Source of the DNA: a phage
Direction: 5' to 3' (one strand)
Assembly: GCA_009015555.1 (NCBI GenBank)
Contig: GCA_009015555.1_3613.1
DNA length: 64,000 bases
Shown here: positions 2,983 to 60,015 of the stretch, in pieces
How positions within the stretch are numbered: the stretch's first letter is position 1
Layout: every line of letters starts with the position of its first letter
Position numbers and translations under genes: made by a program
The notes under the pieces: generated by a model
What the model saw: the letters and a program-made list of their open reading frames with translations, nothing else
Databases searched by the model: none
Told to the model about the DNA's origin: nothing

Positions 2983-5900
2983 ATGGCACAATATGAAGAT
3001 AAGGTCGTGGAAGTTCTGGTGACTCTCCCGGAACCGTCTGCGAGCACCTCTGGTGGTTCTGGTGCGCCTTTCACGGGCATCGAAACCCAAGACACCGTAT
3101 CCACCACACTGATTGGTGATGGTACTCAATCCTCCCCTCTGCAAGCAAACATCAACATCTCCCGTCGTTCAGGAAACCGCCTCCAAGTGGTGAGCACCTC
3201 CAGTGAGCAGGGTCTGTATGTTGCTGGCTCCGACACCAAGGTGTCTGCTAAGGATGGGAACACCGTAACTTACATCTCCGCCCAAGATGCGGCTAACGCT
3301 GGCAACCCGGCCCTGGAAGGTGTATACTCTGATCCGGTGAACGTGTCAACCACGTCACCGAAGAAGACTCTGGAAATTAAGGCTGATCCTACCGGGAAAG
3401 CCAAGACCCAAATCGACGTGATCGTTGATCCAGATTCCATGAACGCCCTGAAGGTAGGCACTGCTGGCCTGAGCGTTCCTGTTTCTGTGGCTCAAGACAA
3501 CACTCTGGAAATCCGCCAGGGTGCTCTGTACGTCCGCCCGCAAGAGACTAAAATCTCCCAAGACCCAAACAACAAGATTCAAGTCAAGTCTGACGGGATT
3601 TACGTTGACACTGTAAAAGGTGATAAAGGTGATACCGGGGCAACTGGCCCGGAAGGCCCTCAAGGCCCACAGGGAGACCCGGGTCCTCAAGGTCCGCAAG
3701 GCCCGCAGGGCGATAAGGGTGATAAAGGTGACACCGGGGACGTAGGACCAGCGGGGGCAACTGGCCCGGCAGGGGCACAGGGTGCTCGTGGCCCAGAAGG
3801 TCCGAAAGGCCCGGCTGGTATTGGTATCAACGTCATCGATCAGCTTGACGAAGTTTCTCAGCTTCCGGCTGTTGCGGAAATGGAACTGGGCGACACTTAC
3901 GTTATTGGACAGAATTTCTGGACCGTTGTCAACGAAAACAACGTGAAGCAGTGGAAGGACATCGGTAACTTCGCGGGGCCTGAAGGTCTGTCTGCTTATG
4001 AAGTTGCAGAAGGCGCGGGCTTCGTTGGTACTGTTGATGAGTGGCTGGAATCCCTGAAAGGGGCTGACGGTATCGGTCTGCAAATTCTTGGTTCCTTCCC
4101 TGACCCGTCCTATCTGCCTGATGAAGGTAACAAGCCGGGTGACTGCTACATCATCCAAGACATGATGTATGTGTGGACAGGTGATGAAGATGGGTGGCAG
4201 ACTGTAGGTCAGATTGGCCCAGAGGGTAAATCTGCGTATCAGGTATGGCTGGCTAACGGTCACACCGGATCTCAGGTTGACTTTCTGAACTCCCTGGTTG
4301 GCCCACAAGGACCGAAAGGTGATAAAGGCGACAAAGGTGATACGGGTGCTGACGGTACTAACGCCAACGCCATCAACCTCTTGGGTAAAGTCGCAGACGA
4401 AGCGAGCCTCCCGGCTGGCGCGGATGCAGGCGATGCCTACCTGATCGGAACTAGCGTTTGGGTCTCCACTGGCAATGACAACTGGGAAAACCTCGGTGCC
4501 TTCCAAGGCCCTAAAGGTGATCAGGGGGATGTCGGCCCTGCTGGCCCGAAAGGCGACAAGGGGGACGCAGGTGACGTAGGCAAAGACAACTACGCATTGG
4601 CGGTAGAGAACGGGTTCCAAGGTTCCCTGAGCGACTACCTGGCATCTCTCAAAGGTGCGAAGGGCGACACTGGCCCGACTGGTCCGCGTGGTCTTACTGG
4701 TCCGCAGGGTGTGAAAGGTGACGCAGGGGAAGGTCTTGCGATCCTCGGATCAAAAGCTGATCCTTCAGAACTACCTTCCAATCCAGTAACTGGTGATGCG
4801 TGGCTGATCGGAGAAGACCTGTACATCTTCAACGGCACTGCTTGGGAGAATGCAGGCCCTGTCCGTGGTCCGAAAGGTGACACCGGAGCCACTGGCCCGG
4901 CTGGAGCTAAGGGTGACAAGGGTGACCAAGGCGAGAAAGGCGACAAGGGTGACCAAGGTGATGTCGGCCCGGCTGGCCCGGAAGGTCCGCAGGGGACTGG
5001 TCTGACGCCGAAAGGTTCTGTTCCTACAGTAGCAGATCTTCCTGACCAAGACAACACCAAAGGCGACTTCTGGGCTGTAGAGGAAGATGGCAATGGTTAC
5101 GCTTGGGATGGGTTGCAGTGGGTTGTTACTGGCCTGACTCGCGGCCCGCAAGGCGAGAAAGGCGACAAGGGCGACAAAGGGGATAAAGGTGATCCGGGGG
5201 ATACTGGTGCCACAGGCGCAGGTGTTATTCCGAAGGGAACTGTAACCTCTGCTGCGACCCTGCCTCCTACCGGGAACACCGTCGGTGATTACTACGTCAC
5301 TGAGGATACTGGGACCGGATACTCTTGGAACGGGACAACCTGGGTTGACTTGGGAGTTGTGCGTGGACCGCAAGGACCGCAGGGCGACAAAGGTGATACC
5401 GGAGACCAAGGTCCGCAAGGTGTGAAAGGTGACACTGGTGCTACAGGCCCTCAAGGCCCGCAAGGTGACATCGGCCCGGGCGTTGAGATCATGGGTAAAC
5501 TCAACAGCACCTCAGAACTGCCTTCAACCGGGCAACTGGGTCAGGGTTACCTGATTGACGGCGACTTCTGGGGATGGACTGGCTCTGCCTACGAAAACCT
5601 TGGACGTATCCAAGGCCCGGTTGGTCCTACTGGTCCTACTGGTGACCCAGGCCCTACGGGTCCGCAGGGTGTCAAGGGTGATAAGGGTGATCAAGGTTCC
5701 TTGTGGATCGTGTTCGACCATGACCCGGGTCCTGCTGATGGTCGTGTAGGTGACTACTTCCTTAACTCCTCAACGTTGCAGTTCTTCCGCAAGACGAACG
5801 CAACCACTTGGGCACCGATGGGTTACATGGGTGGCGGTAACGTTTACGATTCCCCGAAAGACGGCAAGCAGTACGCTCGTATCGACGGGGATTGGGAACT

Positions 5901-6270: not shown

Positions 6271-6290
6271 AAGGGGGCTTCGGCCCCCTT
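6271..6290 (+). promoter_or_regulatory. GC hairpin with UUCG tetraloop (AAGGGGGC-UUCG-GCCCCCUU), no U-tract
   Basis: Perfect 8-bp stem immediately after collagen gene stop; followed by RBS of next gene rather than a T-run. Confidence 0.4.
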
Positions 6291-8717: not shown

Positions 8718-8746
8718 AAAGCCGCCTCCGGGCGGCTTTCTTTTTA
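8718..8746 (+). terminator. rho-independent terminator
   Basis: AAAGCCGCC-TCC-GGCGGCTTT stem followed by CTTTTT. Confidence 0.55.
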
Positions 8747-8773: not shown

Positions 8774-8782
8774 TGATAAAAT
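8774..8782 (+). promoter_or_regulatory. candidate extended -10 promoter (TGaTAAAAT)
   Basis: TGnTAAAAT motif downstream of a terminator and upstream of next gene; same motif recurs at 9374, 16358, 19961, 42803-42814 (minus) and 59785-59796 (minus). Confidence 0.3.
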
Positions 8783-8812
8783 GGTTGCACTGGCTAAAGC
8801 ATGGAGACTATT

Positions 8813-9340
8813 ATGACCAACGAACAAGTAATTGAGCTTGTCCGTGTCCTCCTTGGTGGGATCACCACTGAGGAAATTTCGGACCAGACGATCATCTTCT
8901 TCTGGACCAAGTGGAAGCTGACGTATGATTTGGATAACCACCCGGAGAAAATTCCGGTGGCCCTGTACAACACCGTTGTTGACTGTGTGCGTTGGTTGAT
9001 CGTACAAGAAGTCTCCAGCGGAAATTCATCAATTCGTGAGAGATTTGAAAAGATCGGTGATGAGACTATCTCCATCAAGGGCGGATCAAGCTGGCAATCC
9101 TGGAAAGACTTCCTTGACTGGCTAGAACTCAACCCGGACTACATTGATCCATCTCTGGCGTTCAATTCCTCACTGGTAATCATCGGCGGTGTGCGTAAAG
9201 ATGAGTTCTTCCGTGTGAAGAATAACCCTAACTCCTACAACGGCTTCATGGAGCAAGGTGTCTACCCTACCCCAGCGATCCCGAAGCAATCCTCGTGGCC
9301 TTGTGACCGTGTTCGGCGCAGTCCGTGGATGGTCCGCTAA
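8813..9340 (+). CDS. hypothetical head-tail joining protein
   Basis: Track ORF 8801..9340; second ATG at 8813 has GGAG spacing; gene order after head and fibre genes. Confidence 0.45.
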   Translation: MTNEQVIELVRVLLGGITTEEISDQTIIFFWTKWKLTYDLDNHPEKIPVALYNTVVDCVRWLIVQEVSSGNSSIRERFEKIGDETISIKGGSSWQSWKDFLDWLELNPDYIDPSLAFNSSLVIIGGVRKDEFFRVKNNPNSYNGFMEQGVYPTPAIPKQSSWPCDRVRRSPWMVR

Positions 9341-9373
9341 AGCGTTGACTTTGTTGCTTTTGCTGACCTATTG

Positions 9374-9382
9374 TGGTAAAAT
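9374..9382 (+). promoter_or_regulatory. candidate extended -10 promoter (within TTGTGGTAAAAT)
   Basis: Exact 12-mer TTGTGGTAAAAT at 9371-9382, also present twice on minus strand. Confidence 0.3.
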
Positions 9383-9402
9383 AACTTTCATGGGGAAATA
9401 CC

Positions 9403-9864
9403 GTGGCAAAGAAGTCATATACTGACATCTCTGAACTGAAGCGGTATTTCAGCCAACTCTCTGATTTAGCTGAGAAAGAAGTGGAGTACGGTTTTTACGA
9501 CGAGAAACACTATTCTGGGCTGAATATGGCGACTCTTGCCGCCATCCATGAAGAAGGCTGGAATAACCTTCCTGAGCGCAACTTCATGTTCTCAACCTCC
9601 ATGCACTTCCAAGAAGGTCTCCGGAAACATATTAAACGTATGCACAACGGGATCATTCAGGGCCGGGGCTTCTCAAGCTACCTGACCAAAATCGGGAAGG
9701 ATGCAGCCGACAGTATTCGCTTCACGATCTCCACGGGTTCATTCAGTAATCCAAAGGTATCAAAAGACTGGGCGAGTTACAAGGGGTTTGATGACGCAAT
9801 GATTCATTACGGTGACTTGTCGAGTGCGGCAACGTACAAAATCGTCAAGTACCAAGGGAAATAA
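9403..9864 (+). CDS. hypothetical virion protein
   Basis: 153-aa ORF, GTG start preceded by GGGGAA. Confidence 0.5.
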   Translation: MAKKSYTDISELKRYFSQLSDLAEKEVEYGFYDEKHYSGLNMATLAAIHEEGWNNLPERNFMFSTSMHFQEGLRKHIKRMHNGIIQGRGFSSYLTKIGKDAADSIRFTISTGSFSNPKVSKDWASYKGFDDAMIHYGDLSSAATYKIVKYQGK

Positions 9865-13539: not shown

Positions 13540-13808
13540 TCCCGCTAAGTACCGTAGAGAAAGCACTTGAGTATGCACGGAAGAACTCTTCTCTAAAATG
13601 GTATGACTACCTTTACTTCAGGGTAATGGAGCGGTTCAAGGGTGTCAATGAGATCTCTATTGAAGCTGGCGATATGGAAGACCTCCTGAAGAAAAACGAA
13701 TACTTGGACATCCAGGATTTCGTACAGGAAGCCAAGCAGAAGGACATCGATCAGGCACGGAAGAATGCTGAACAAGCTGCCCGCACGAAGAAGTTTAAGG
13801 GAGGATAA
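13063..13808 (+). CDS. tail assembly chaperone, long product via programmed -1 frameshift at T_TTT_TTC (13431-13437)
   Basis: Slippery heptamer TTTTTTC in codons Cys141-Phe-Phe; -1 frame is open from 13416 through 13808 and includes track ORF 13626..13808; canonical G/GT-type arrangement before tape measure. Confidence 0.45.
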
Positions 13809-13810
13809 GG

Positions 13811-13848
13811 GCTGGAGTCGAAAGACTCTGGCCTTTTCTTTTTGAGGC
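13811..13848 (+). terminator. terminator-like hairpin with T-tract (possible attenuator before tape measure gene)
   Basis: GCTGGAGTC-GAAA-GACTCTGGC stem with wobble pairs followed by TTTTCTTTTT. Confidence 0.35.
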
Positions 13849-13872
13849 GTTATAATTGCCGGAGGAGGATCA

Positions 13873-16318: not shown

Positions 16319-16347
16319 CAAGGGGGCTTCGGCCCCCTTTTTTATTG
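16319..16347 (+). terminator. rho-independent terminator after tape measure gene
   Basis: AAGGGGGC-TTCG-GCCCCCTT stem followed by TTTTATT. Confidence 0.55.
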
Positions 16348-16357
16348 CCTGCATTCA

Positions 16358-16366
16358 TGCTAAAAT
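16358..16366 (+). promoter_or_regulatory. candidate extended -10 promoter (TGcTAAAAT)
   Basis: TGnTAAAAT motif between terminator and next RBS. Confidence 0.3.
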
Positions 16367-16386: not shown

Positions 16387-17250
16387 ATGGCAAGTTACGA
16401 AAACGGTGTTTACGTTCCGTCAACGGAACAAGAGAAGAAAATGAAGGAGGCCGTTGACGACTGGCGGGCTGGAGTCGATCGGAAGGAAAAGGCGGTTTCT
16501 AACGCCAAGGCACGTGAAGACATTCAGTACACCATGTTCGTTTCCGGACTGCGCCGTGGACGGTTGAACGAGTTCGAGAGCAAAAACCAGACAGATGACC
16601 TGGCAATCCTCTTCGACTCAGTTACCAACCATAGTTACACAAAGGACTACAACAAGTCAAGCTATGCGGTGGAGTCAAAGGCAAAAGCCTCTGACCACGT
16701 AACAACGCAGGATGGCAAGTTTACGTTCTCTGGCACAGTTACCGACTCCCCTTACTTGATTGACCCTCGGAACATGATTGATCGGGACACAGATAAGGAA
16801 AACCCGATGCTTGCCCGCCGCCCGGCGAAGGCCATCGAGATTCTCGAACTGATTGCCGACTCACACCAGCTTGTAACTCTCGTCACCGAGGACAATATCC
16901 TCAGTAATTATGTTATCACCAACTTCCAAGTGGATCGTAGTTCAGAGACAGGATCTTCAATCAACGTGCAGGTTACGTTGGAAGAGTTCCGCTTCAAGAT
17001 GGTTAACAAGACCGTAATGGCTCGTACTTCTGACCCCAAGAAGGCTAAAAACGCCAACACCGGGACGAAGCAAACGGCTGAAGGTGGCGCGGTGGATGAC
17101 AGTGCGAAGCAGAAGCGTCAAACACCGTATATCGGGAAGAATGCTGAAACAAAAGAGCGCTGGGAAAACGCAGCTATCGGTACTACTGATTTCGGCGGGA
17201 AGCCGGGGGCGAAGCTACCGTTTGACCCATCTGACCTGATGAGGAAGTAA
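16387..17250 (+). CDS. tail or baseplate protein (post-tape-measure)
   Basis: 287-aa ORF with RBS AGGAGG; gene order. Confidence 0.5.
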   Translation: MASYENGVYVPSTEQEKKMKEAVDDWRAGVDRKEKAVSNAKAREDIQYTMFVSGLRRGRLNEFESKNQTDDLAILFDSVTNHSYTKDYNKSSYAVESKAKASDHVTTQDGKFTFSGTVTDSPYLIDPRNMIDRDTDKENPMLARRPAKAIEILELIADSHQLVTLVTEDNILSNYVITNFQVDRSSETGSSINVQVTLEEFRFKMVNKTVMARTSDPKKAKNANTGTKQTAEGGAVDDSAKQKRQTPYIGKNAETKERWENAAIGTTDFGGKPGAKLPFDPSDLMRK

Positions 17251-19914: not shown

Positions 19915-19916
19915 CA

Positions 19917-19945
19917 AAGGGAGCCTCTGGCTCCCTTTTCTTTTA
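19917..19945 (+). terminator. rho-independent terminator
   Basis: AAGGGAGCC-TCT-GGCTCCCTT stem followed by TTCTTTT. Confidence 0.55.
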
Positions 19946-19960
19946 ATTCTCAGTGGAATA

Positions 19961-19969
19961 TGATAAAAT
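19961..19969 (+). promoter_or_regulatory. candidate extended -10 promoter (TGaTAAAAT)
   Basis: TGnTAAAAT motif after terminator, upstream of RBS AGGAGG. Confidence 0.3.
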
Positions 19970-20003: not shown

Positions 20004-21488
20004 ATGGCGGAGAATTACGGTTTGACAGGCAGCGGATTTAACCTCCCGCCGATGGACGACCTTGTTCAGGAAACGAAGAAGACTTTCAAGTCCGCCTTTG
20101 GTGAAGATTTCAACACCGAGAGCAACTCCGTTGCCGACAAGCTGATTCAGATTTTTAACGAGCGAGAGTATCAACTCTGGCTCCTGATGGGTTCTGTTTA
20201 CTACGCCCAGACCATGCAGGGTGCCGAAGGCATTTACCTGGATGACCTCTTGGGCAAGCGCGGTATCTACCGCCTCGGCAAGACCCGCAGTACCGGGACA
20301 GTCGTGATGACGATCGACTCCTCAGTCCCGTATAACATGATTTATTCCGCCGCTACTTATACAATCGACACCGATTATGAACTGTCTTCTGACGTTCAGG
20401 TAGCAGGTAATATTGTGGCCCAGCTTATTAAGGGTACTGATTTGTCAGTCGGAACTTACCGCCTGCAAATTCAGAACACAACCGACCAGTCTGTAAAAAC
20501 CCTCTCCCTGAATTTGACCGCGACCTCTGGTCAGCCCTTGATGACATTCTTCGGGCAGATCAAGGACTTTATCGTGAACAACACGATCCTGTCCAACCAA
20601 GATCGTATCTGGATCGATTCCACAGAGGGTGCGCTGTACATCGGTTATGATACTAACAAGAACATGATCGGCTTGTCAAGTCGCGTGGACTTCCGTACTA
20701 ACCCGATGGCTGGCACTCGCAGCATCTCTATGGATGTTCGCTCAATTGAACCGGGCTACATTTCCCGTGATGTCCATTCTGTCCGTAGCATCAACCCGAC
20801 CCCGGGTGGATTTGTTGATATTGATAACCTGTCTGCGTTTATCGACGGCTCTGATGTTGAGTCAGATAACGAATACCGCATCCGTGCAGCGACCTCCATC
20901 AACGAGGGCAAAGCAACCCGCCCGGCGATCCTTGCAGCGTTGCTGAACAAGGTGGAAGGTATCGAGAAGGTTCGTATCTTTAACAACAACACGGACAAGA
21001 CAAACAGTCTTGGAATCCCGCCCTATCGTTTCATGACTGTGTGTTATGGTGGCGGTACTGCTGAGATCAGTCAGGTTCTTTACGACACGATTGCAGCCTC
21101 TAACAACACGTATGGAGACACCTTCTACGATATCACCACAGAAGATGACCAAGTGGAACGTATTTGGCACACCAAGGCCACTGCCCGGCAGTTGGCTATT
21201 CGTGTTCGGTATCGAGGACGACCACTCTCCGTGACAGAGGAAACAACGATTGCCAATGGTTTGGCGACGGCTGTTAATGGAACGATGATTGCGGGCACCC
21301 TGTACAACGTTCGCTTGGTGGGCACTGTGATGAGTTCTACCTCTCCGGACCGTTTCACACAGGTCTATGTGGACATCAAAAACAAGGGCGAGCCGGATTC
21401 AGCATACGTTAACACTGACGTTACCGCAGGGACTACGCAGGTATTCTCCTTGGAGCCGGAAGACGTAATTTTCAGCCAGATTGTGTAA
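20004..21488 (+). CDS. baseplate J-like protein
   Basis: Track ORF 19953..21488; ATG at 20004 has AGGAGG; about 495 aa; position in baseplate block. Confidence 0.45.
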   Translation: MAENYGLTGSGFNLPPMDDLVQETKKTFKSAFGEDFNTESNSVADKLIQIFNEREYQLWLLMGSVYYAQTMQGAEGIYLDDLLGKRGIYRLGKTRSTGTVVMTIDSSVPYNMIYSAATYTIDTDYELSSDVQVAGNIVAQLIKGTDLSVGTYRLQIQNTTDQSVKTLSLNLTATSGQPLMTFFGQIKDFIVNNTILSNQDRIWIDSTEGALYIGYDTNKNMIGLSSRVDFRTNPMAGTRSISMDVRSIEPGYISRDVHSVRSINPTPGGFVDIDNLSAFIDGSDVESDNEYRIRAATSINEGKATRPAILAALLNKVEGIEKVRIFNNNTDKTNSLGIPPYRFMTVCYGGGTAEISQVLYDTIAASNNTYGDTFYDITTEDDQVERIWHTKATARQLAIRVRYRGRPLSVTEETTIANGLATAVNGTMIAGTLYNVRLVGTVMSSTSPDRFTQVYVDIKNKGEPDSAYVNTDVTAGTTQVFSLEPEDVIFSQIV

Positions 21489-31917: not shown

Positions 31918-32564
31918 CTTACTTTTGAAATTACCAGTTTTTGAACGTAGCCCTGCAACAGGGCGTAAGTTACACCACCCACATAACTACCGCCGACAGA
32001 GAGTCTCTCTCCGGCACCGAACCAGTTGGGAACAGAAAAGTTCTGAACTTCCCCGCTCACCATATTTCTCACACGGATCTGCCGAGAGTCCGGGTAAGTT
32101 TCGATCCGCAGATTAAAAACTTGGCCCTGATTACCATTGATCGAGCAACGAACATAATTTCCGCTGTTGTCTGTTGGGAACAATTGGTGCCCTCCAACCC
32201 CAACCATGCCATAATGCGCCAGTCCGGCGACGATCCTTGTGACGTAATCGCCAGAACACCACACCATCTGGGTTGCAGAAGGACTAAGGCTTTGGAAAAC
32301 AACCTCAATCACCATAGGATCTGTGGATAGATCCACTGAATACTGAGTTTGGAAATACCCTTGGCCTTGGGCAGGTATGAACTGCATGACCCTTCCAATC
32401 CCTGCAACATCGACTATCCTTGGGCCTGTGCCGACCAAAGAGAAGGTGTGGTTTTCAGACCAGTCCTTCAAAACAGTCTCGCCGAGAGATTGCCGTGTGG
32501 CATCCACGTAGAGAATGGCATCCTCTTTGCGAGATGACTTCCCTATAATCATTATCTCGTTCAT
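31914..32564 (-). CDS. N-tag family paralog E: ConA/LamG-like jelly-roll protein (N-terminus MNEIMIIGKSS)
   Basis: Track ORF 31914..32567 trimmed to ATG; LamG-like pattern; N-terminal motif shared with four other genes. Confidence 0.55.
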   Translation of the reverse strand: MNEIMIIGKSSRKEDAILYVDATRQSLGETVLKDWSENHTFSLVGTGPRIVDVAGIGRVMQFIPAQGQGYFQTQYSVDLSTDPMVIEVVFQSLSPSATQMVWCSGDYVTRIVAGLAHYGMVGVGGHQLFPTDNSGNYVRCSINGNQGQVFNLRIETYPDSRQIRVRNMVSGEVQNFSVPNWFGAGERLSVGGSYVGGVTYALLQGYVQKLVISKVS

Positions 32565-33828: not shown

Positions 33829-33844
33829 GGGGGCCGAAGCCCCC
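33829..33844 (-). promoter_or_regulatory. GC hairpin with UUCG loop (GGGGGCUUCGGCCCCC), no U-tract
   Basis: Perfect stem in intergenic region after gene 33857..34549. Confidence 0.4.
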
Positions 33845-38831: not shown

Positions 38832-38863
38832 TGTATTTCTCCTCAGTAATTAAGTTCGGGTTC

Positions 38864-38892
38864 ATTATGGGGCCTTTCGGCCCCGCTGTCAA
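38864..38892 (-). promoter_or_regulatory. sigma70-like promoter (TTGACA, 17-nt spacer containing GC hairpin, CATAAT)
   Basis: -35 abuts stop of upstream gene; spacer is GCGGGGCCGAAAGGCCC. Confidence 0.5.
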
Positions 38893-42104: not shown

Positions 42105-42131
42105 TAATAAAAAACCGCCCCGAAGGGCGGT
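42105..42131 (-). terminator. rho-independent terminator
   Basis: ACCGCCC-TTCG-GGGCGGT stem followed by TTTTTATTA on minus strand. Confidence 0.55.
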
Positions 42132-42757
42132 TATCTTTTCTTGGTTTCAATCTTGATTGAGCGCATCAAGCACCGGGAATGATACAGAGCTTGGTCTTGA
42201 GAACCGCCGATCATGAGATTAAAACTTGTCCCGTCTGCAAGATCTGGGATGGCTTTGTTGTTTATCGTTGGCGATCCATCAACAGTTACAGTGAGGCTCT
42301 TGTTAATAGACTCGAAGATTATCTCGTGATAAACACCTTTTGTCACGGCGGGGCCTGCATTGACCCTGCTGGAATTATACCACCAGTCAAGGTATCCGTT
42401 ACTCAGCATGTTGGCGATCCAAGTGCCAGACCCGTTTCCTTGAATAGATCTCCCCACAAATATCATTGGGTTTGTTGCCGCTGCCTTAACCTTCAGATTC
42501 ATGGTGATCTTCCAGTCATTGTTTAGCAGCTTGTCTGGGGTGGTCCCTCCGCTCAATGCCCCATCTCCAACAAAATCCATCGCTGGCAGGCCCTCGTCGA
42601 GAACCGTCGCGGATGTTCCGGCGGTCCTGTTGAACGTTATCCCGCGATCAGTGAATCCTGAGAATGTGCCCAAGGGATACTTGGTGAAGTCCAACTCGAA
42701 CCAAGTGCTGTACTTTTTCGGATCTCCGCCCCCCGGCAGTACCAACATCTCTTGCAT
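42131..42757 (-). CDS. N-tag family paralog B: ConA/LamG-like jelly-roll protein (N-terminus MQEMLVLPGGG)
   Basis: 208-aa ORF with RBS GGGGG; LamG-like pattern; shared N-terminal motif. Confidence 0.55.
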   Translation of the reverse strand: MQEMLVLPGGGDPKKYSTWFELDFTKYPLGTFSGFTDRGITFNRTAGTSATVLDEGLPAMDFVGDGALSGGTTPDKLLNNDWKITMNLKVKAAATNPMIFVGRSIQGNGSGTWIANMLSNGYLDWWYNSSRVNAGPAVTKGVYHEIIFESINKSLTVTVDGSPTINNKAIPDLADGTSFNLMIGGSQDQALYHSRCLMRSIKIETKKR

Positions 42758-42766
42758 ATTGCCCCC

Positions 42767-42791
42767 TAAAAGAAAAGGGGCCGAAGCCCCC
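42767..42791 (-). terminator. hairpin plus U-tract (GGGGGCUUCGGCCCC then UUUUCUUUU) between polymerase gene and paralog B
   Basis: Perfect stem with UUCG loop followed by T-run on minus strand; lies 5 nt downstream of predicted start site of the motif at 42803-42814. Confidence 0.45.
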
Positions 42792-42802
42792 GGAATACAA
42801 GC

Positions 42803-42814
42803 ATTTTACCACAA
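42803..42814 (-). promoter_or_regulatory. TTGTGGTAAAAT motif (candidate extended -10 promoter)
   Basis: Exact 12-mer also at 9371-9382 (plus) and 59785-59796 (minus). Confidence 0.3.
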
Positions 42815-42831
42815 ATGTGTAAAAATAGCCA

Positions 42832-45468
42832 TTAGTGACAATCTCCCCAGCTTGTGCCCGTCAGGTATTCACCTGTGATGTGGACTGGAGATTTCATCAT
42901 CTTAGCCGCCTGCTCCACGCACTTAACGACCATCTGCCCGACCGGGCAATGAATAATCGTGTACACGCCGTTCTCGTCCGGATCACACTTGAACTTACCT
43001 TCTTTCACACAGTGACCATCCAGAACCAGACCTTTCGCCAGGCACTGCTCAACAAAGGCTTTTGCGGTTGCCTCGTCGTTGAACTTCCATTCTTTCTTGA
43101 ACTTGTGCGGCACTTCAAGCTGGTATTCATCGTGGTAGTAGATGATACGGCGGACGCCTTCATCATACCAGCCACGCTTAACCAACTGCCAGTGCAGCAG
43201 GATACCGACCAGATCGAACAGTGCAGCACCGCCGTTCTGCTGGTATGCGTTCAGCAAGGAGTGTTTGGAGCGGGTGTAGATCTTACGACCATCGAGGCCG
43301 TAGATAAAGCGTTTCCCGGTCAACTCCCAGAACTTCTCAAGTGCTTCTTTACGACCTTTCAGACCGATGTTGCTATCCCAGAATGCGTCGATTACCGCCT
43401 GAGCCTTGTCGAGGGAAATACCCAACATGGAGGCGATCTTCGCGGCCTGGGCACCGTACATGATGCCGTATGTCACACCCTTACCTTCACCACGGGAAAC
43501 CTTCTTACCCGCCGCTTTGGTATACGCTTCAGCGTTTCGGCTGTGGGCGTCACCTGATTCCATGATCCGGAGATATGCCCCGCCGTCGAACTCGTAGGCA
43601 CCCCATGCTGCGATCATACCTTCGAGGTTTGAGCCGTCGATACCAACCTGATATTTCCCTTCAGATGCCCGGAATAAGCCACGCATCTCTTTACCCAGTA
43701 AAACCTTCTCGTCTGGTTTAGGGACGTTAGCCACGATTGTGTGCTTACGTCGCCCGGTGTTGGTGATCCCAGAATAACGCGCCGGGAGTTTACCGTCAAT
43801 ACGCAGTCGTGGGTGGTTCAGCCATCCTGTGTCAACCTTGTCTTCCTTGAGCGGGTCAAGTACAGAACGACGGTTACGCAGAGACAGCCACTTCACGATC
43901 TGCTTTGCCATATGACCGTCAACCTTCTCCAAGTTCGGACACAGGCCGCTCATATCTTTCAACTGCGGAGACGTAGGCAGGCCACGGGCCTTACGTCGCA
44001 ACAGCTTGTACATCTTCTCTTTGTCCTGCCACGCCTTCGGGGTGATGCCGAGGTATTCCAGAATAAGATCCCGGTATTCAACTTGGTCCAACTGCTCAAT
44101 GTACTCACGGACAAGCCCATCGACCTCGTTATCGGGGCGTTGTTTCTTAAACTGGTCCTTCGTCACATCCTTACTGCGCCACAGGGTTGGCTTCCAGCCT
44201 GCATCACGGATAAGGAACTTCTTCACGTCATCTTGGTTACCGATACGCATCGGAATCATAATGTCCGGCATGGTTTGGTTCTTCAGATCCAACATTGCCC
44301 GTGCCATGTCCTCTGGTGAGAGAGGGATCAGGGTCGTTTGCTTGTTGTTCTGGTCCCGGATAAACTGCGGCATCGCTGCCTCATCCTCGACACCATGCTC
44401 ATTGCAATACTTGATTGCTGCCGCCGTCAGGCTACCATCGGCCTTGAAAGACTTCGCCGGGGGACCCTTAAAGTCGAGTGCCTCCCAGTTGACATTATAC
44501 CCCAACTTCTCCAGCCACTTCCACCCAGTCCCGGACAAAGATCCATCGCCCTTGAACGGCTTAGAAGGGAAGGTCGGTTGTGCTGACTTCGCCATCTCTT
44601 TCTTCGGGAGATGGGGTTCAACATCTCCCTCGATCTCTCGCATCATTTGATCGATACGGTCACGAAGTTTAAGTGCCGCCTCTTCGTCGAAAGATACGCC
44701 CTGAATCTCCTGCTCAATCATCAGGTAGTCTGTCAGCATACCACGACGCATGGCATTCTTCCAGTTGATCAGCTTGTACTTCTTGGCGTCCTTATCCTTA
44801 TCTTCATCCTTGTACATGAAGCGTTTGTCATCTACCAGCTTGCCGTCGCAGGCGATCTCCTCCATGAGGGCCGTCCACACCATTTCGTTGATGATAACGT
44901 CTTCGATGATACGATCACAATACTTCCACAGCGGCAGGCCACGCCAGTCTTCGATTGCCACTTTCTGGTTGGCAACACGCATACCCCACGCCTCTAAGCC
45001 GTGAGGGCCGACAGGTTTCATCTTCCCGGTGACCGGGTTCTTTACCATCTCCGGACACCCACGAGGAAGCGGTCGGTCTGGATAAAGAGTTCGAGACATT
45101 GACAGAGTGTCGAACAGGTTAACCTGCTTGCCGTTCAGGGTGCCCATGCACTTAGGGTCGCCGAACATATCATACTGTGTTCCCAACATCTTTTTAAACA
45201 GACGAAGGTCGTAGCCGAACAGGTTGTGGATCGCGATGGATTTAGGCTCCGTCTTGAACCAATCGTTCAACTCCTCAAAGGTACGAATTTTGAAATTCTT
45301 GCCCTTCGATTGGATAAATTTCAACGCCTGATCGTACCCTTCCCGGTTGGGGTCGAGGAAGATATTCCAGTTATCGACCTTATACTCCTTGAACAGGATC
45401 ACGTGAAGCTGGTCTACTTCTTCGAGCAGACCATTGGCTTCAGCATCCCCTACAAACAACCCTTTCAT
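42832..45468 (-). CDS. DNA polymerase, family A, with 3'-5' exonuclease domain
   Basis: Track ORF 42832..45495 starts at GTG; ATG at 45468 has AAGGAG; N-terminal exonuclease motif VGDAEANGL; C-terminal KxxxYG..YG region and HDE motif typical of family A polymerases. Confidence 0.85.
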   Translation of the reverse strand: MKGLFVGDAEANGLLEEVDQLHVILFKEYKVDNWNIFLDPNREGYDQALKFIQSKGKNFKIRTFEELNDWFKTEPKSIAIHNLFGYDLRLFKKMLGTQYDMFGDPKCMGTLNGKQVNLFDTLSMSRTLYPDRPLPRGCPEMVKNPVTGKMKPVGPHGLEAWGMRVANQKVAIEDWRGLPLWKYCDRIIEDVIINEMVWTALMEEIACDGKLVDDKRFMYKDEDKDKDAKKYKLINWKNAMRRGMLTDYLMIEQEIQGVSFDEEAALKLRDRIDQMMREIEGDVEPHLPKKEMAKSAQPTFPSKPFKGDGSLSGTGWKWLEKLGYNVNWEALDFKGPPAKSFKADGSLTAAAIKYCNEHGVEDEAAMPQFIRDQNNKQTTLIPLSPEDMARAMLDLKNQTMPDIMIPMRIGNQDDVKKFLIRDAGWKPTLWRSKDVTKDQFKKQRPDNEVDGLVREYIEQLDQVEYRDLILEYLGITPKAWQDKEKMYKLLRRKARGLPTSPQLKDMSGLCPNLEKVDGHMAKQIVKWLSLRNRRSVLDPLKEDKVDTGWLNHPRLRIDGKLPARYSGITNTGRRKHTIVANVPKPDEKVLLGKEMRGLFRASEGKYQVGIDGSNLEGMIAAWGAYEFDGGAYLRIMESGDAHSRNAEAYTKAAGKKVSRGEGKGVTYGIMYGAQAAKIASMLGISLDKAQAVIDAFWDSNIGLKGRKEALEKFWELTGKRFIYGLDGRKIYTRSKHSLLNAYQQNGGAALFDLVGILLHWQLVKRGWYDEGVRRIIYYHDEYQLEVPHKFKKEWKFNDEATAKAFVEQCLAKGLVLDGHCVKEGKFKCDPDENGVYTIIHCPVGQMVVKCVEQAAKMMKSPVHITGEYLTGTSWGDCH

Positions 45469-45557
45469 ACTCTCTCCTTTTTGGCATACCTCCACTCAGG
45501 ATAGCCCAATGCCTCGTAAAGATCAACCTATCAATACCCGTCCTTGGGTGAATAATC

Positions 45558-52540: not shown

Positions 52541-52555
52541 GGGGCCGAAGCCCCG
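52541..52555 (-). promoter_or_regulatory. GC hairpin with UUCG loop (GGGGCUUCGGCCCC), no U-tract
   Basis: Perfect stem immediately after primase-helicase stop. Confidence 0.4.
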
Positions 52556-58897: not shown

Positions 58898-59299
58898 TCA
58901 AGCCTTTTTGGAGGCTTGAGCGAGAACTCCCTTCTTAACATCTTCCCAAAGAGAATTGAGGAAAGGGTCGTTGGTGATCACGTCGGCATACCAAGGGCCG
59001 TAGATACGGTACACGGAATCGACGGTGATCGCGTACAAATGCCCAGAATGGACGGCAAGGCCAGTCACGTAGCCAGTACGCACTTGGGTCCCATCCTTAC
59101 CTGTCTTCCGGCGCTTCGCCTCATTGAACTCGATATAACCTGTCAATGTGACAATCTTCTCCGGGACCTGAAGATCCGGGAGTTTTTCGTGGCTAAGGAC
59201 CTGATTCCCAGATTTACATCCCTCCAGGCACAGATTTCCGCCGTACTTCTTCCCGTACTTACGGGCAAACTCAGCCATTTTGATCGTGGACAATTTCAC
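58898..59299 (-). CDS. hypothetical protein
   Basis: 133-aa track ORF (GTG start; alternative ATG at 59278 would give 8-nt overlap with macro gene). Confidence 0.45.
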   Translation of the reverse strand: MKLSTIKMAEFARKYGKKYGGNLCLEGCKSGNQVLSHEKLPDLQVPEKIVTLTGYIEFNEAKRRKTGKDGTQVRTGYVTGLAVHSGHLYAITVDSVYRIYGPWYADVITNDPFLNSLWEDVKKGVLAQASKKA

Positions 59300-59801
59300 T
59301 CTCCTTCAGAACATAAATGGTCACATCGAAGTCTCTCAGGCGACCTTCAATCATCCGAGATATGATACCCCAATCGCCACCTGCGAGTCCAGCCCCTATT
59401 TTTGGTAGCCCGATACGAAGGTCTTGGGTACTCATATCCAGAGTACGACACTTGGCATGGAGAGATACCGCCATTGCAGACAGGGCCGAACGCAATGCCC
59501 AGTAATCGAGGTCCATCTTACCCTCTCTGCGCCCGGTGAAGGTGTATTGACCGTACAGATTGTAAACCAGTAAACCATTTTTGCAGAAGGCCGACGACAA
59601 AGTTCCCAGTTTAGCCCGATCACCACGGGTGGTCATTTGGTCTGCCGTCCACGCTTCCGGAAAAGCTGACGCAATCTTTGGGGCAATACCAGACTTCATG
59701 GTATTCATGCAGTTACAGCAGTGGGCTATCACGTTTACCTCTCCAGCCTGCGCCGCAGAGATCAGATCGCCCACACGGTATGTCATTTTACCACAAGGCA
59801 T
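59271..59801 (-). CDS. macro-domain-like (ADP-ribose binding or processing) protein
   Basis: Track ORF 59271..59882 trimmed to ATG 59801; VNVIAHCCNCMNTMKSGIAPKIASAFPE near N-terminus and GLAGGDWGII near C-terminus resemble macro-domain motifs. Confidence 0.45.
   Translation of the reverse strand: MPCGKMTYRVGDLISAAQAGEVNVIAHCCNCMNTMKSGIAPKIASAFPEAWTADQMTTRGDRAKLGTLSSAFCKNGLLVYNLYGQYTFTGRREGKMDLDYWALRSALSAMAVSLHAKCRTLDMSTQDLRIGLPKIGAGLAGGDWGIISRMIEGRLRDFDVTIYVLKESEIVHDQNG
59785..59796 (-). promoter_or_regulatory. TTGTGGTAAAAT motif inside 5' end of macro gene (candidate internal promoter)
   Basis: Third exact copy of the 12-mer. Confidence 0.25.
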
Positions 59802-59802
59802 A

Positions 59803-60015
59803 TTAAAGTTCACCCCGCTTCGCCTTCTGGCACATCTGGAGAACGTCATAGCAAGACTGCTTGACGATCCACGGCTCGCCACGGTACAGGGTAATCAGGG
59901 TTCCCTTGCGGTCTTTCCCTTCTACTTCGGTCACCTGCGGGTGAAACTCCCGGATATTTGCAACATCGAGGCAGATTGGTTCTTCAGACGCTAGTTGGTT
60001 CAGGTATACGAACAT
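59803..60015 (-). CDS. hypothetical protein
   Basis: 70-aa ORF with RBS AGGAGGG. Confidence 0.5.
   Translation of the reverse strand: MFVYLNQLASEEPICLDVANIREFHPQVTEVEGKDRKGTLITLYRGEPWIVKQSCYDVLQMCQKAKRGEL

Follow-up and report, generated by a model that had tools for sequence, protein, structure and literature searches.

Recurring extended -10 motif TGnTAAAAT at candidate late promoters of a Certrevirus phage

In the extended -10 sigma-70 promoters of E. coli and its phages, of which galP1 is an example, a TGn element placed one base before the -10 hexamer makes contact with region 3.0 of sigma-70 and renders the -35 element dispensable; promoters of this kind work with sigma-70 alone. The TRTGn sequence known from E. 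coli and Bacillus promoters is an extended form of the same element. The MotA box of T4-type middle promoters, (a/t)3TGCTT(t/c)A, is centred at -30 and lies 12 ± 1 bp from the -10 hexamer.

The closest described promoter set is that of Escherichia phage rV5, the type phage of the Vequintavirinae, for which a MEME search of the sequences upstream of late genes returned eight copies of 'TggTAaAAtA', put forward as putative late promoters and described for the genus Vequintavirus (Kropinski et al. 2013, Virol J 10:76, PMC3606486). The same study listed sigma-70-type promoters, 11 of them with extended -10 regions and some of the form TTGACx-N17-TGGTAAAAT; it likened the late motif to the T4 late promoter TATAAATA, reported that homologues of gp33, gp45 and gp55 are absent from rV5, and proposed an Srd-like anti-sigma for this phage (PMC3606486). 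Its Table S4C gives the sequence of P056, TGATGTATCTTTGTGGTAAAATACATTAGTGAGGGAT, which stands upstream of the Neck1 gene and contains the exact 12-mer that we describe below (PMC3606486). For Certrevirus the promoters reported are of an early/middle class only, AAAA-N3-4-TGTTGAC-N17-19-TATAAT (Buttimer et al. 2020, PMC7344957). Our literature search returned no transcript mapping, transcription start site or reporter data for Vequintavirinae, its sole RNA-seq match concerning a T5-like phage, and a text search for the motif itself gave unrelated papers only.

The DNA analysed here is a stretch of 64,000 nucleotides from a phage (the window). It shares ~97.7% identity with the Cronobacter phages CR8 and CR3 and 93% with Pectobacterium phage PcCB7V, all of them members of Certrevirus (subfamily Vequintavirinae), to which the window also belongs. 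Position 1 of the window is CR8 position 4080. Positions 1-29,950 hold virion genes on the plus strand, and the remainder of the window holds replication and accessory genes on the minus strand.

Abundance and placement of the motif

The 12-mer TTGTGGTAAAAT is present in three exact copies in the 64-kb window, at 9371-9382 on the plus strand and at 42803-42814 and 59785-59796 on the minus strand. The original prediction held this to be improbable by chance, and motif enumeration with shuffled controls agrees with it, since not one of 100 dinucleotide-preserving shuffles of the window contained any copy. The wider pattern TGnTAAAAT (TGNTAAAAT) matches ten times in the window against 1.46 ± 1.11 expected, a number that no shuffle reached. 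Half of these ten matches are in non-coding DNA, which makes up 5.2% of the window (binomial P = 8e-5), the coding share of 94.8% being taken from a simple gene map. Inside genes there are five copies against 2.0 ± 1.3 expected when synonymous codons are shuffled within each gene (P = 0.04); because these shuffles predict about two coding copies, some of the copies within genes are expected by chance.

The complete CR8 genome gives the same picture, with 19 copies of TGnTAAAAT against 4.7 expected, 17 of them co-oriented with transcription, and with three copies of the 12-mer (the same three) against 0.06 expected. The intergenic copies in CR8 precede gp003 (the gene at the start of the head-gene cluster), gp012, Neck1 (gp013), gp021, the baseplate wedge gene (gp026), the LamG-like gene (gp060), a membrane protein gene (gp193) and the Rz spanins, and no copy lies in the intergenic regions of the CR8 early genes. 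No gene of CR8 is annotated in RefSeq as a sigma factor.

Among the sites in the window, those at 8774, 9371, 16358, 19961 and 42803 are intergenic, point in the same direction as the genes and lie 18-45 nt upstream of start codons; the site at 59785 is the exception and lies inside an open reading frame. Enrichment, placement, direction and conservation at orthologous sites are matters of direct observation. The predicted leaders are very short at several copies (~13 nt), which we counted against a promoter reading.

In its form, the motif resembles the -10 region of an extended -10 promoter. TG stands exactly one base upstream of the hexamer in 10 of 10 TGNTAAAAT matches, as it must by construction of the pattern, and the hexamer TAAAAT agrees with TATAAT at five of six positions, including the A at -11 and the T at -7; it is invariant across relatives, with variants in rV5 reading TACAAT. 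Within the window, A, C and G all occur as n, and TAAAAT is followed by either A or G. In register the 12-mer reads T(-18) T(-17) G(-16) T(-15) G(-14) G(-13) TAAAAT, so that its TGTGn has the TRTGn form. The pattern TGTGNTANAAT matches only the three 12-mer sites in the window, and we found no longer element shared around the three copies, whose flanks have no likeness beyond the 12-mer. On these comparisons, a putative -10 region of the family TGnTAAAAT(A/G) is found repeatedly in this Certrevirus and across the Vequintavirinae, and the 12-mer is its form closest to consensus. The triple identity is best explained by three candidate promoters standing at the family optimum, largely through the known preference for TRTGn upstream of -10 elements, rather than by a separate element.

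Sites in the virion module and their counterparts in rV5

The plus-strand copy of the 12-mer lies directly before the Neck1 gene, together with the following features:

9351..9362, plus strand: conserved block TTGTTGCTTTTG, with a -35 element TTGCTT (9354-9359) that is 17 bp from TAAAAT
9371..9382, plus strand: 12-mer TTGTGGTAAAAT, a TRTGn extended -10 with the hexamer TAAAAT (9377-9382); predicted Neck1 / tail-completion promoter
9403..9864, plus strand: Neck1 / tail-completion gene downstream of the 9371 promoter (PHROG 222, E = 8.5e-44)

This copy sits in a 62-nt gap between genes 8801..9340 and 9403..9864, 20 nt from the start codon, and a TTGACT at 9345-9350 is found just upstream of the TTGTTGCTTTTG block. 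The Neck1 protein is 43% identical to its rV5 orthologue, gp056. Across seven IMG/VR relatives with protein identities down to 74%, the sequence from TTGACTTTGTTGCTTTTG to the start codon is near-invariant and the upstream coding sequence has diverged. The 12-mer itself varies among these relatives at its first T and at its third base (ATGTGG, TTATGG), and the conserved core at the Neck1 site is therefore TGGTAAAATAACTTTCATGGGG. The arrangement is TTGTTGCTTTTG-atgtatct-TTGTGGTAAAATA in rV5 and TTGTTGCTTTTG-ctgaccta-TTGTGGTAAAATA in the window; the distance from block to 12-mer is 8 nt in both, so that in each genus 17 bp separate TTGCTT from TAAAAT. The pattern TTGTTGCTTTTG-N10-GTGGTAAAATA was found in eight IMG/VR contigs, including four newly examined ones, and only upstream of Neck1 homologues. 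Taken by its sequence elements, the 9371 site is a complete and conserved predicted promoter of the sigma-70 type with a TRTGn extended -10.

The predicted Neck1 leader, AACTTTCATGGGGAAATACC (9383-9402, plus strand), is conserved as strongly as the promoter in contigs L011-L017, and it may be constrained beyond the ribosome-binding site. The Neck1 start codon is GTG, and TTG in contig L015.

Three further intergenic sites on the plus strand carry the wider pattern:

8718-8739, 16320-16339 and 19916-19938, plus strand: terminator-like hairpins, 35, 19 and 23 nt before the sites at 8774, 16358 and 19961
8774..8782, plus strand: extended -10 TGATAAAAT, with a -35 element ATGACT at 17 bp; upstream of gene 8801/8813..9340
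16358..16366, plus strand: extended -10 TGCTAAAAT; upstream of 16387..17250, the first gene after the tape-measure gene
19961..19969, plus strand: extended -10 TGATAAAAT; upstream of the baseplate wedge gene 20004..21488

It had been claimed that TGnTAAAAT follows terminators at these three places, and the hairpins listed above, each lying upstream of its site, confirm this. At 16358 and 19961 the -35 position is taken up by the T-run of the terminator. The 8774 site is kept in CR8 and CB7. The gene at 16387 is orthologous to rV5 gp048, and in rV5, too, the tape-measure gene is followed by a terminator and then by TGATACAAT. The wedge gene after 19961 is orthologous to rV5 gp036, whose promoter P036 reads TTGACT-17-TGGTAAAAT. 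When the wedge-gene site was aligned for six relatives and rV5, TG and TAAAATAC were invariant, n was A or G and the upstream spacer varied; an invariant TG/TAAAATAC around a variable n is the pattern that would be expected of sigma-70 contacts with an extended -10.

By tblastn orthology, the rV5 positions at P056, gp036 and gp048 thus correspond to 9371, 19961 and 16358 in the window, and the motif lies upstream of each. The rV5 motif 'TggTAaAAtA' resembles that of the window in its core, TGGTAAAAT(A), and in its position upstream of morphogenesis genes, often just after terminators; two of the rV5 late promoters, P056 and P064, both carry TGTGG. The two phages differ at 42803 and 59785, where the genes concerned have no corresponding copy in rV5.

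Two side observations concern the same regions. Before rV5 gp048, TGATACAAT (record position 45059; contig L018, which is rV5, 32020-32110, minus strand) fits an extended -10 better than does GTTGTAAAAA, the published core of P048, whose site may be mis-registered by ~20 nt. In the window (13809-13872, plus strand), a plain TATAAT lacking TG (GCGTTATAAT) stands between a terminator at 13807-13836 and the tape-measure gene, and gives the virion module a second type of -10-only unit.

The two minus-strand copies of the 12-mer

The copy at 42803 lies within the replication module, between the DNA polymerase gene and a LamG-like gene, in the following setting:

42803..42814, minus strand: 12-mer TTGTGGTAAAAT, with a weak -35 element TGGCTA at 17 bp
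42767..42791, minus strand: hairpin GGGGGC-UUCG-GCCCC(U) followed by TTTTCTTTT; intrinsic-terminator-like (terminator scan)
42131..42757, minus strand: LamG / concanavalin-A-like gene, 208 aa (PHROG 13196 'major tail protein', Pfam PF13385)

The original prediction had called this placement odd, with a motif just upstream of a terminator-like hairpin, and the order of elements bears out the description: the 12-mer begins 17 nt past the stop codon (42832-42834) of the DNA polymerase gene 42832..45495 and is followed by an 11-nt spacer, the hairpin GGGGGCTTCGGCCCC with TTTTCTTTT, a ribosome-binding site AGGGGG and the ATG at 42757, 45 nt separating the 12-mer from this start codon. The hairpin, placed after the predicted start site of the 42803 promoter and before the ribosome-binding site, has a six-pair stem, a UUCG loop and the T-run TTTTCTTTT, agrees with the definition of an intrinsic terminator, and folds at -11.8 kcal/mol as the dominant structure. 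A promoter here would fire straight into a terminator-like hairpin, which is odd for a productive promoter and which we counted against that reading.

The 12-mer at this locus is exact in CR8 and POP15. In POP15 (protein 82% identical) the 12-mer, hairpin and T-run are unchanged and the sequence on both sides has diverged, and both the 12-mer and the hairpin appear, on this comparison, to be under constraint. A ~700-bp block comprising the 12-mer, the hairpin and the LamG-like gene (42131-42831, minus strand) is present in the window, CR3, CR8, PcCB7V and POP15-18 and absent in KaOmega and CB7. In KaOmega the polymerase stop codon abuts a terminator, AACCGCCCTTCGGGGCGGTT, and a promoter TGTTGAC-N16-TGGTAATAT, the same elements that the window has at 42132-42063, after the LamG-like gene; since that gene is missing and the polymerase stop abuts this terminator and promoter in KaOmega, the 12-mer, hairpin and gene are present or absent as a unit. 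The Seunavirus homologue of the LamG-like gene lies two genes after its polymerase gene. Searches for relatives of the LamG-like gene gave only CR3 in IMG/VR and nine records in the phage collection.

The same order is found independently in rV5, where P064 and t064ABC likewise comprise an upstream stop codon, TGTGG with a -10 hexamer, a hairpin with a T-run, a ribosome-binding site and the next gene; in sequence, the terminase stop codon is followed by TGTGGTACAAT, the hairpin GCCCTC-tgac-GAGGGC with its T-run, and gp064. The rV5 locus differs in its genes (terminase and gp064), in its -10 hexamer (TACAAT) and in the position of the hairpin, ~13 nt after the predicted start as against ~5 nt in the window. 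The promoter-before-terminator order is thus seen at 42803 in the window and POP15, and at P064 in rV5.

Under a promoter reading, the 42803 copy would serve the LamG-like, tail-associated gene that is embedded in the replication module. We infer that the hairpin would halt transcription reading through from the polymerase gene. RNAs made from the 42803 promoter would begin ~5 nt before the stem, so they would be attenuated or, if the polymerase reads through, would carry a (possibly stabilising) 5' stem-loop. We also considered an RNA element in the 42803 leader and rejected it: the minimum free energy structure pairs the 5' end with the start-codon region, but its z-score is -0.73 and the pairing is lost in POP15.

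The UUCG hairpin recurs elsewhere in the window:

6274-6287 (plus strand), 16323-16336 (plus strand), 33830-33843 (minus strand), 42777-42790 (minus strand) and 52541-52554 (minus strand): copies of the hairpin core GGGGCTTCGGCCCC

There are five copies of this core with its UUCG tetraloop against 0 expected, and UUCG is always in the mRNA sense. A clear T-run follows only the copies at 16323 and 42777, the others lying between cistrons without one, and this distribution suggests a role for the UUCG hairpin in RNA stability or processing as well as in termination. Separately, the region 38832-38892 (minus strand) holds a promoter-like TTGACA-N17-CATAAT in which a G+C hairpin, GGGGCCGAAAGGCCCC, takes up the spacer, a position where a stable hairpin is unusual.

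The third copy lies in the 5' end of a gene:

59785..59796, minus strand: 12-mer TTGTGGTAAAAT over codons 2-6 (P-C-G-K-M) of a macrodomain-like gene (59271..59801)

That the 12-mer falls inside this macro gene had also been noted as odd, and this was upheld. The small gene upstream ends in a TAA one base before the ATG at 59801, and CR8, KaOmega and CB7 share this TAAnATG junction; given the conserved ATG, the 12-mer covers codons 2-6. The gene matches PHROG 335 and macrodomain proteins in the PDB from residue 6 on. Candidate start codons lie within 59786-59813 on the minus strand, namely the GTG at 59813 (RefSeq CR8), the ATG at 59801 and the ATG at 59786; the TAAnATG junction and the relatives favour the ATG at 59801, and distant homologues begin at the 59786 position.

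This copy brings in the first alternative to three promoters at a family optimum, namely that the triple identity is in part coincidence, with only the Neck1 copy and perhaps the one at 42803 being functional and the macrodomain copy arising from codon choice for Pro-Cys-Gly-Lys-Met. We give this account a substantial chance of being right while thinking it somewhat improbable. About two coding copies of TGnTAAAAT are expected from protein sequence and codon usage, half of the motif at 59785 is GGT AAA (Gly-Lys), which is conserved as protein, and the SleB endolysin gene downstream already has a separate and well-formed promoter of its own, TTGACT-16-TGATAAACT. The motif is also degraded in the phiTE/CB7 lineage, which has TGGTAAACT at this site, phiTE and CB7 reading CGTGGTAAACT. 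However, the 12-mer would arise from the peptide and the codon usage of the window with a probability of only ~0.023, and the peptide itself is not conserved, being MPCGK, MNRGK or absent. TGnTAAAAT is present at this spot in four of five lineages: KaOmega and contig L022 keep TGTGGTAAAAT, and in contig L021, where the N-terminus is shorter, ATGATAAAATAC gives TGATAAAAT in a different codon register. From these alignments, the 59785 copy may be a weak internal promoter; it is the weakest and least certain of the three putative promoters and may in part, or even largely, reflect coding, notably that of Gly-Lys.

Readings of the motif and what it means

Taking these data together, we think it likely that at least the intergenic copies are host sigma-70 extended -10 promoters for which a -35 element is optional. 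The host sigma-70 RNA polymerase would recognise the TG and the -10 hexamer, and with recognition running mainly through these two elements a good -35 would be dispensable; transcription would start ~7 nt downstream of the hexamer. Each motif unit stands directly before virion or lysis genes, and in most cases the terminator of the unit before it lies just upstream; each module would therefore be re-initiated. Promoter activity and the use of sigma-70 are what we infer here, and late timing is assigned only from the functions of the downstream genes.

Like E. coli extended -10 promoters, the window motif has TG one base from the -10 hexamer, A at position 2 and T at position 6 of the hexamer, a weak or absent -35 at most copies, and TGTGn in the three exact copies. 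Unlike extended -10 promoters in general, it would form a phage-wide, class-specific set tied to late genes. The idea of a family of extended -10 promoters, with which the analysis began, therefore holds at the sequence level, given the invariant TG/TAAAAT(A), the n and flanks that vary out to Vequintavirus, the intergenic and co-directional placement and the published rV5 motif. The accompanying remark that no -35 is evident applies to most other copies, where it is weak or absent, but is wrong for 9371 (TTGCTT at 17 bp, kept in rV5), and 8774 has ATGACT at 17 bp. A phage activator, further suggested as possibly needed, is not required to explain -35 independence, for which TGn with sigma-70 suffices; no activator was identified, and no homologue of the Srd-like protein of rV5 was detected in these genomes.

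A second alternative holds that the motif marks late promoters specific to the phage, which only a polymerase altered by a phage factor would read, be it a T4 gp55-like sigma, an activator or an anti-sigma that disables -35 recognition. The distribution of the motif is compatible with it, as copies stand before late (virion and lysis) genes and are absent from early intergenic regions, a good -35 is missing at most copies (with T-runs in its place at 16358 and 19961), and a distinct early class, AAAA-N-TGTTGAC-N17-TATAAT, exists in Certrevirus. The resemblance to the T4 late promoter TATAAATA and the Srd-like anti-sigma proposed for rV5 by Kropinski et al. (PMC3606486) point the same way. We nevertheless regard this account as unlikely. 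The window motif shares with the T4 late promoter (which uses gp55, gp33 and gp45) an A/T-rich, -10-only element before late genes, but the two differ in sequence, GTAAAATA as against TATAAATA, and the core TAAAAT(A/G) with its invariant TG does not correspond to a T4-type, gp55-dependent late promoter; an invariant TG is the signature of sigma-70 region 3.0 and not of gp55-type recognition. Homologues of gp33, gp45 and gp55 are, moreover, those that rV5 lacks (PMC3606486). The Srd-like rV5 gp11 was rejected as the switch because tblastn (E <= 1e-3) found no counterpart to it in the window, CR8, CB7 or KaOmega. Finally, the good -35 elements at the Neck1 site and at rV5 P036 and P051 (TTGACT/TTGACA, 17 bp) fit an ordinary sigma-70 promoter. 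A T4-type MotA middle promoter was likewise set aside: TGCTTTT occurs only at the Neck1 site, 15 bp from TAAAAT, and the other copies have no box.

A more speculative proposal, which we rate as quite improbable, is that the promoter-before-terminator order at 42803 is a deliberate switch, in which the hairpin would stop early/middle read-through and a polymerase changed late in infection, starting from the TGTGGTAAAAT promoter, would pass the hairpin and give the transcript a protective 5' stem-loop; more broadly, Vequintavirinae would time their late genes through -35-independent promoters and a factor, without a T4-like late sigma.

The least probable reading is that the 12-mer acts at the RNA level, as the site of a translational repressor or an RNase controlling translation or mRNA decay: its three copies are all on the sense strand near gene starts, two of them read TAAAATG, the one at 59785 falls across the 5' end of an open reading frame and the entire leader downstream of 9371 is conserved too, but such a role is very unlikely because the distance from motif to start codon varies (20 nt, 45 nt, inside the open reading frame), related TGnTAAAAT copies stand downstream of terminators and so would seldom be transcribed from upstream, the motif goes with no significant or conserved RNA structure (z = -0.73, pairing absent in POP15) and Rfam gave no matches in the window. 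The variable n between an invariant TG and TAAAAT is, besides, the pattern of sigma-70-DNA contacts.

On the preferred reading, that of host sigma-70 extended -10 promoters, the motif is largely an ordinary feature, already predicted for rV5 in 2013 and not included in the one Certrevirus promoter analysis found (Buttimer 2020). Its conservation at orthologous positions across genera strengthens the 2013 prediction, and it leaves two named oddities: a putative promoter that would fire into a terminator (42803) and a possible promoter inside a gene (59785). For the Certrevirus phages, which are studied as biocontrol agents against Cronobacter and Pectobacterium, the finding amounts to a map of candidate late transcription units.
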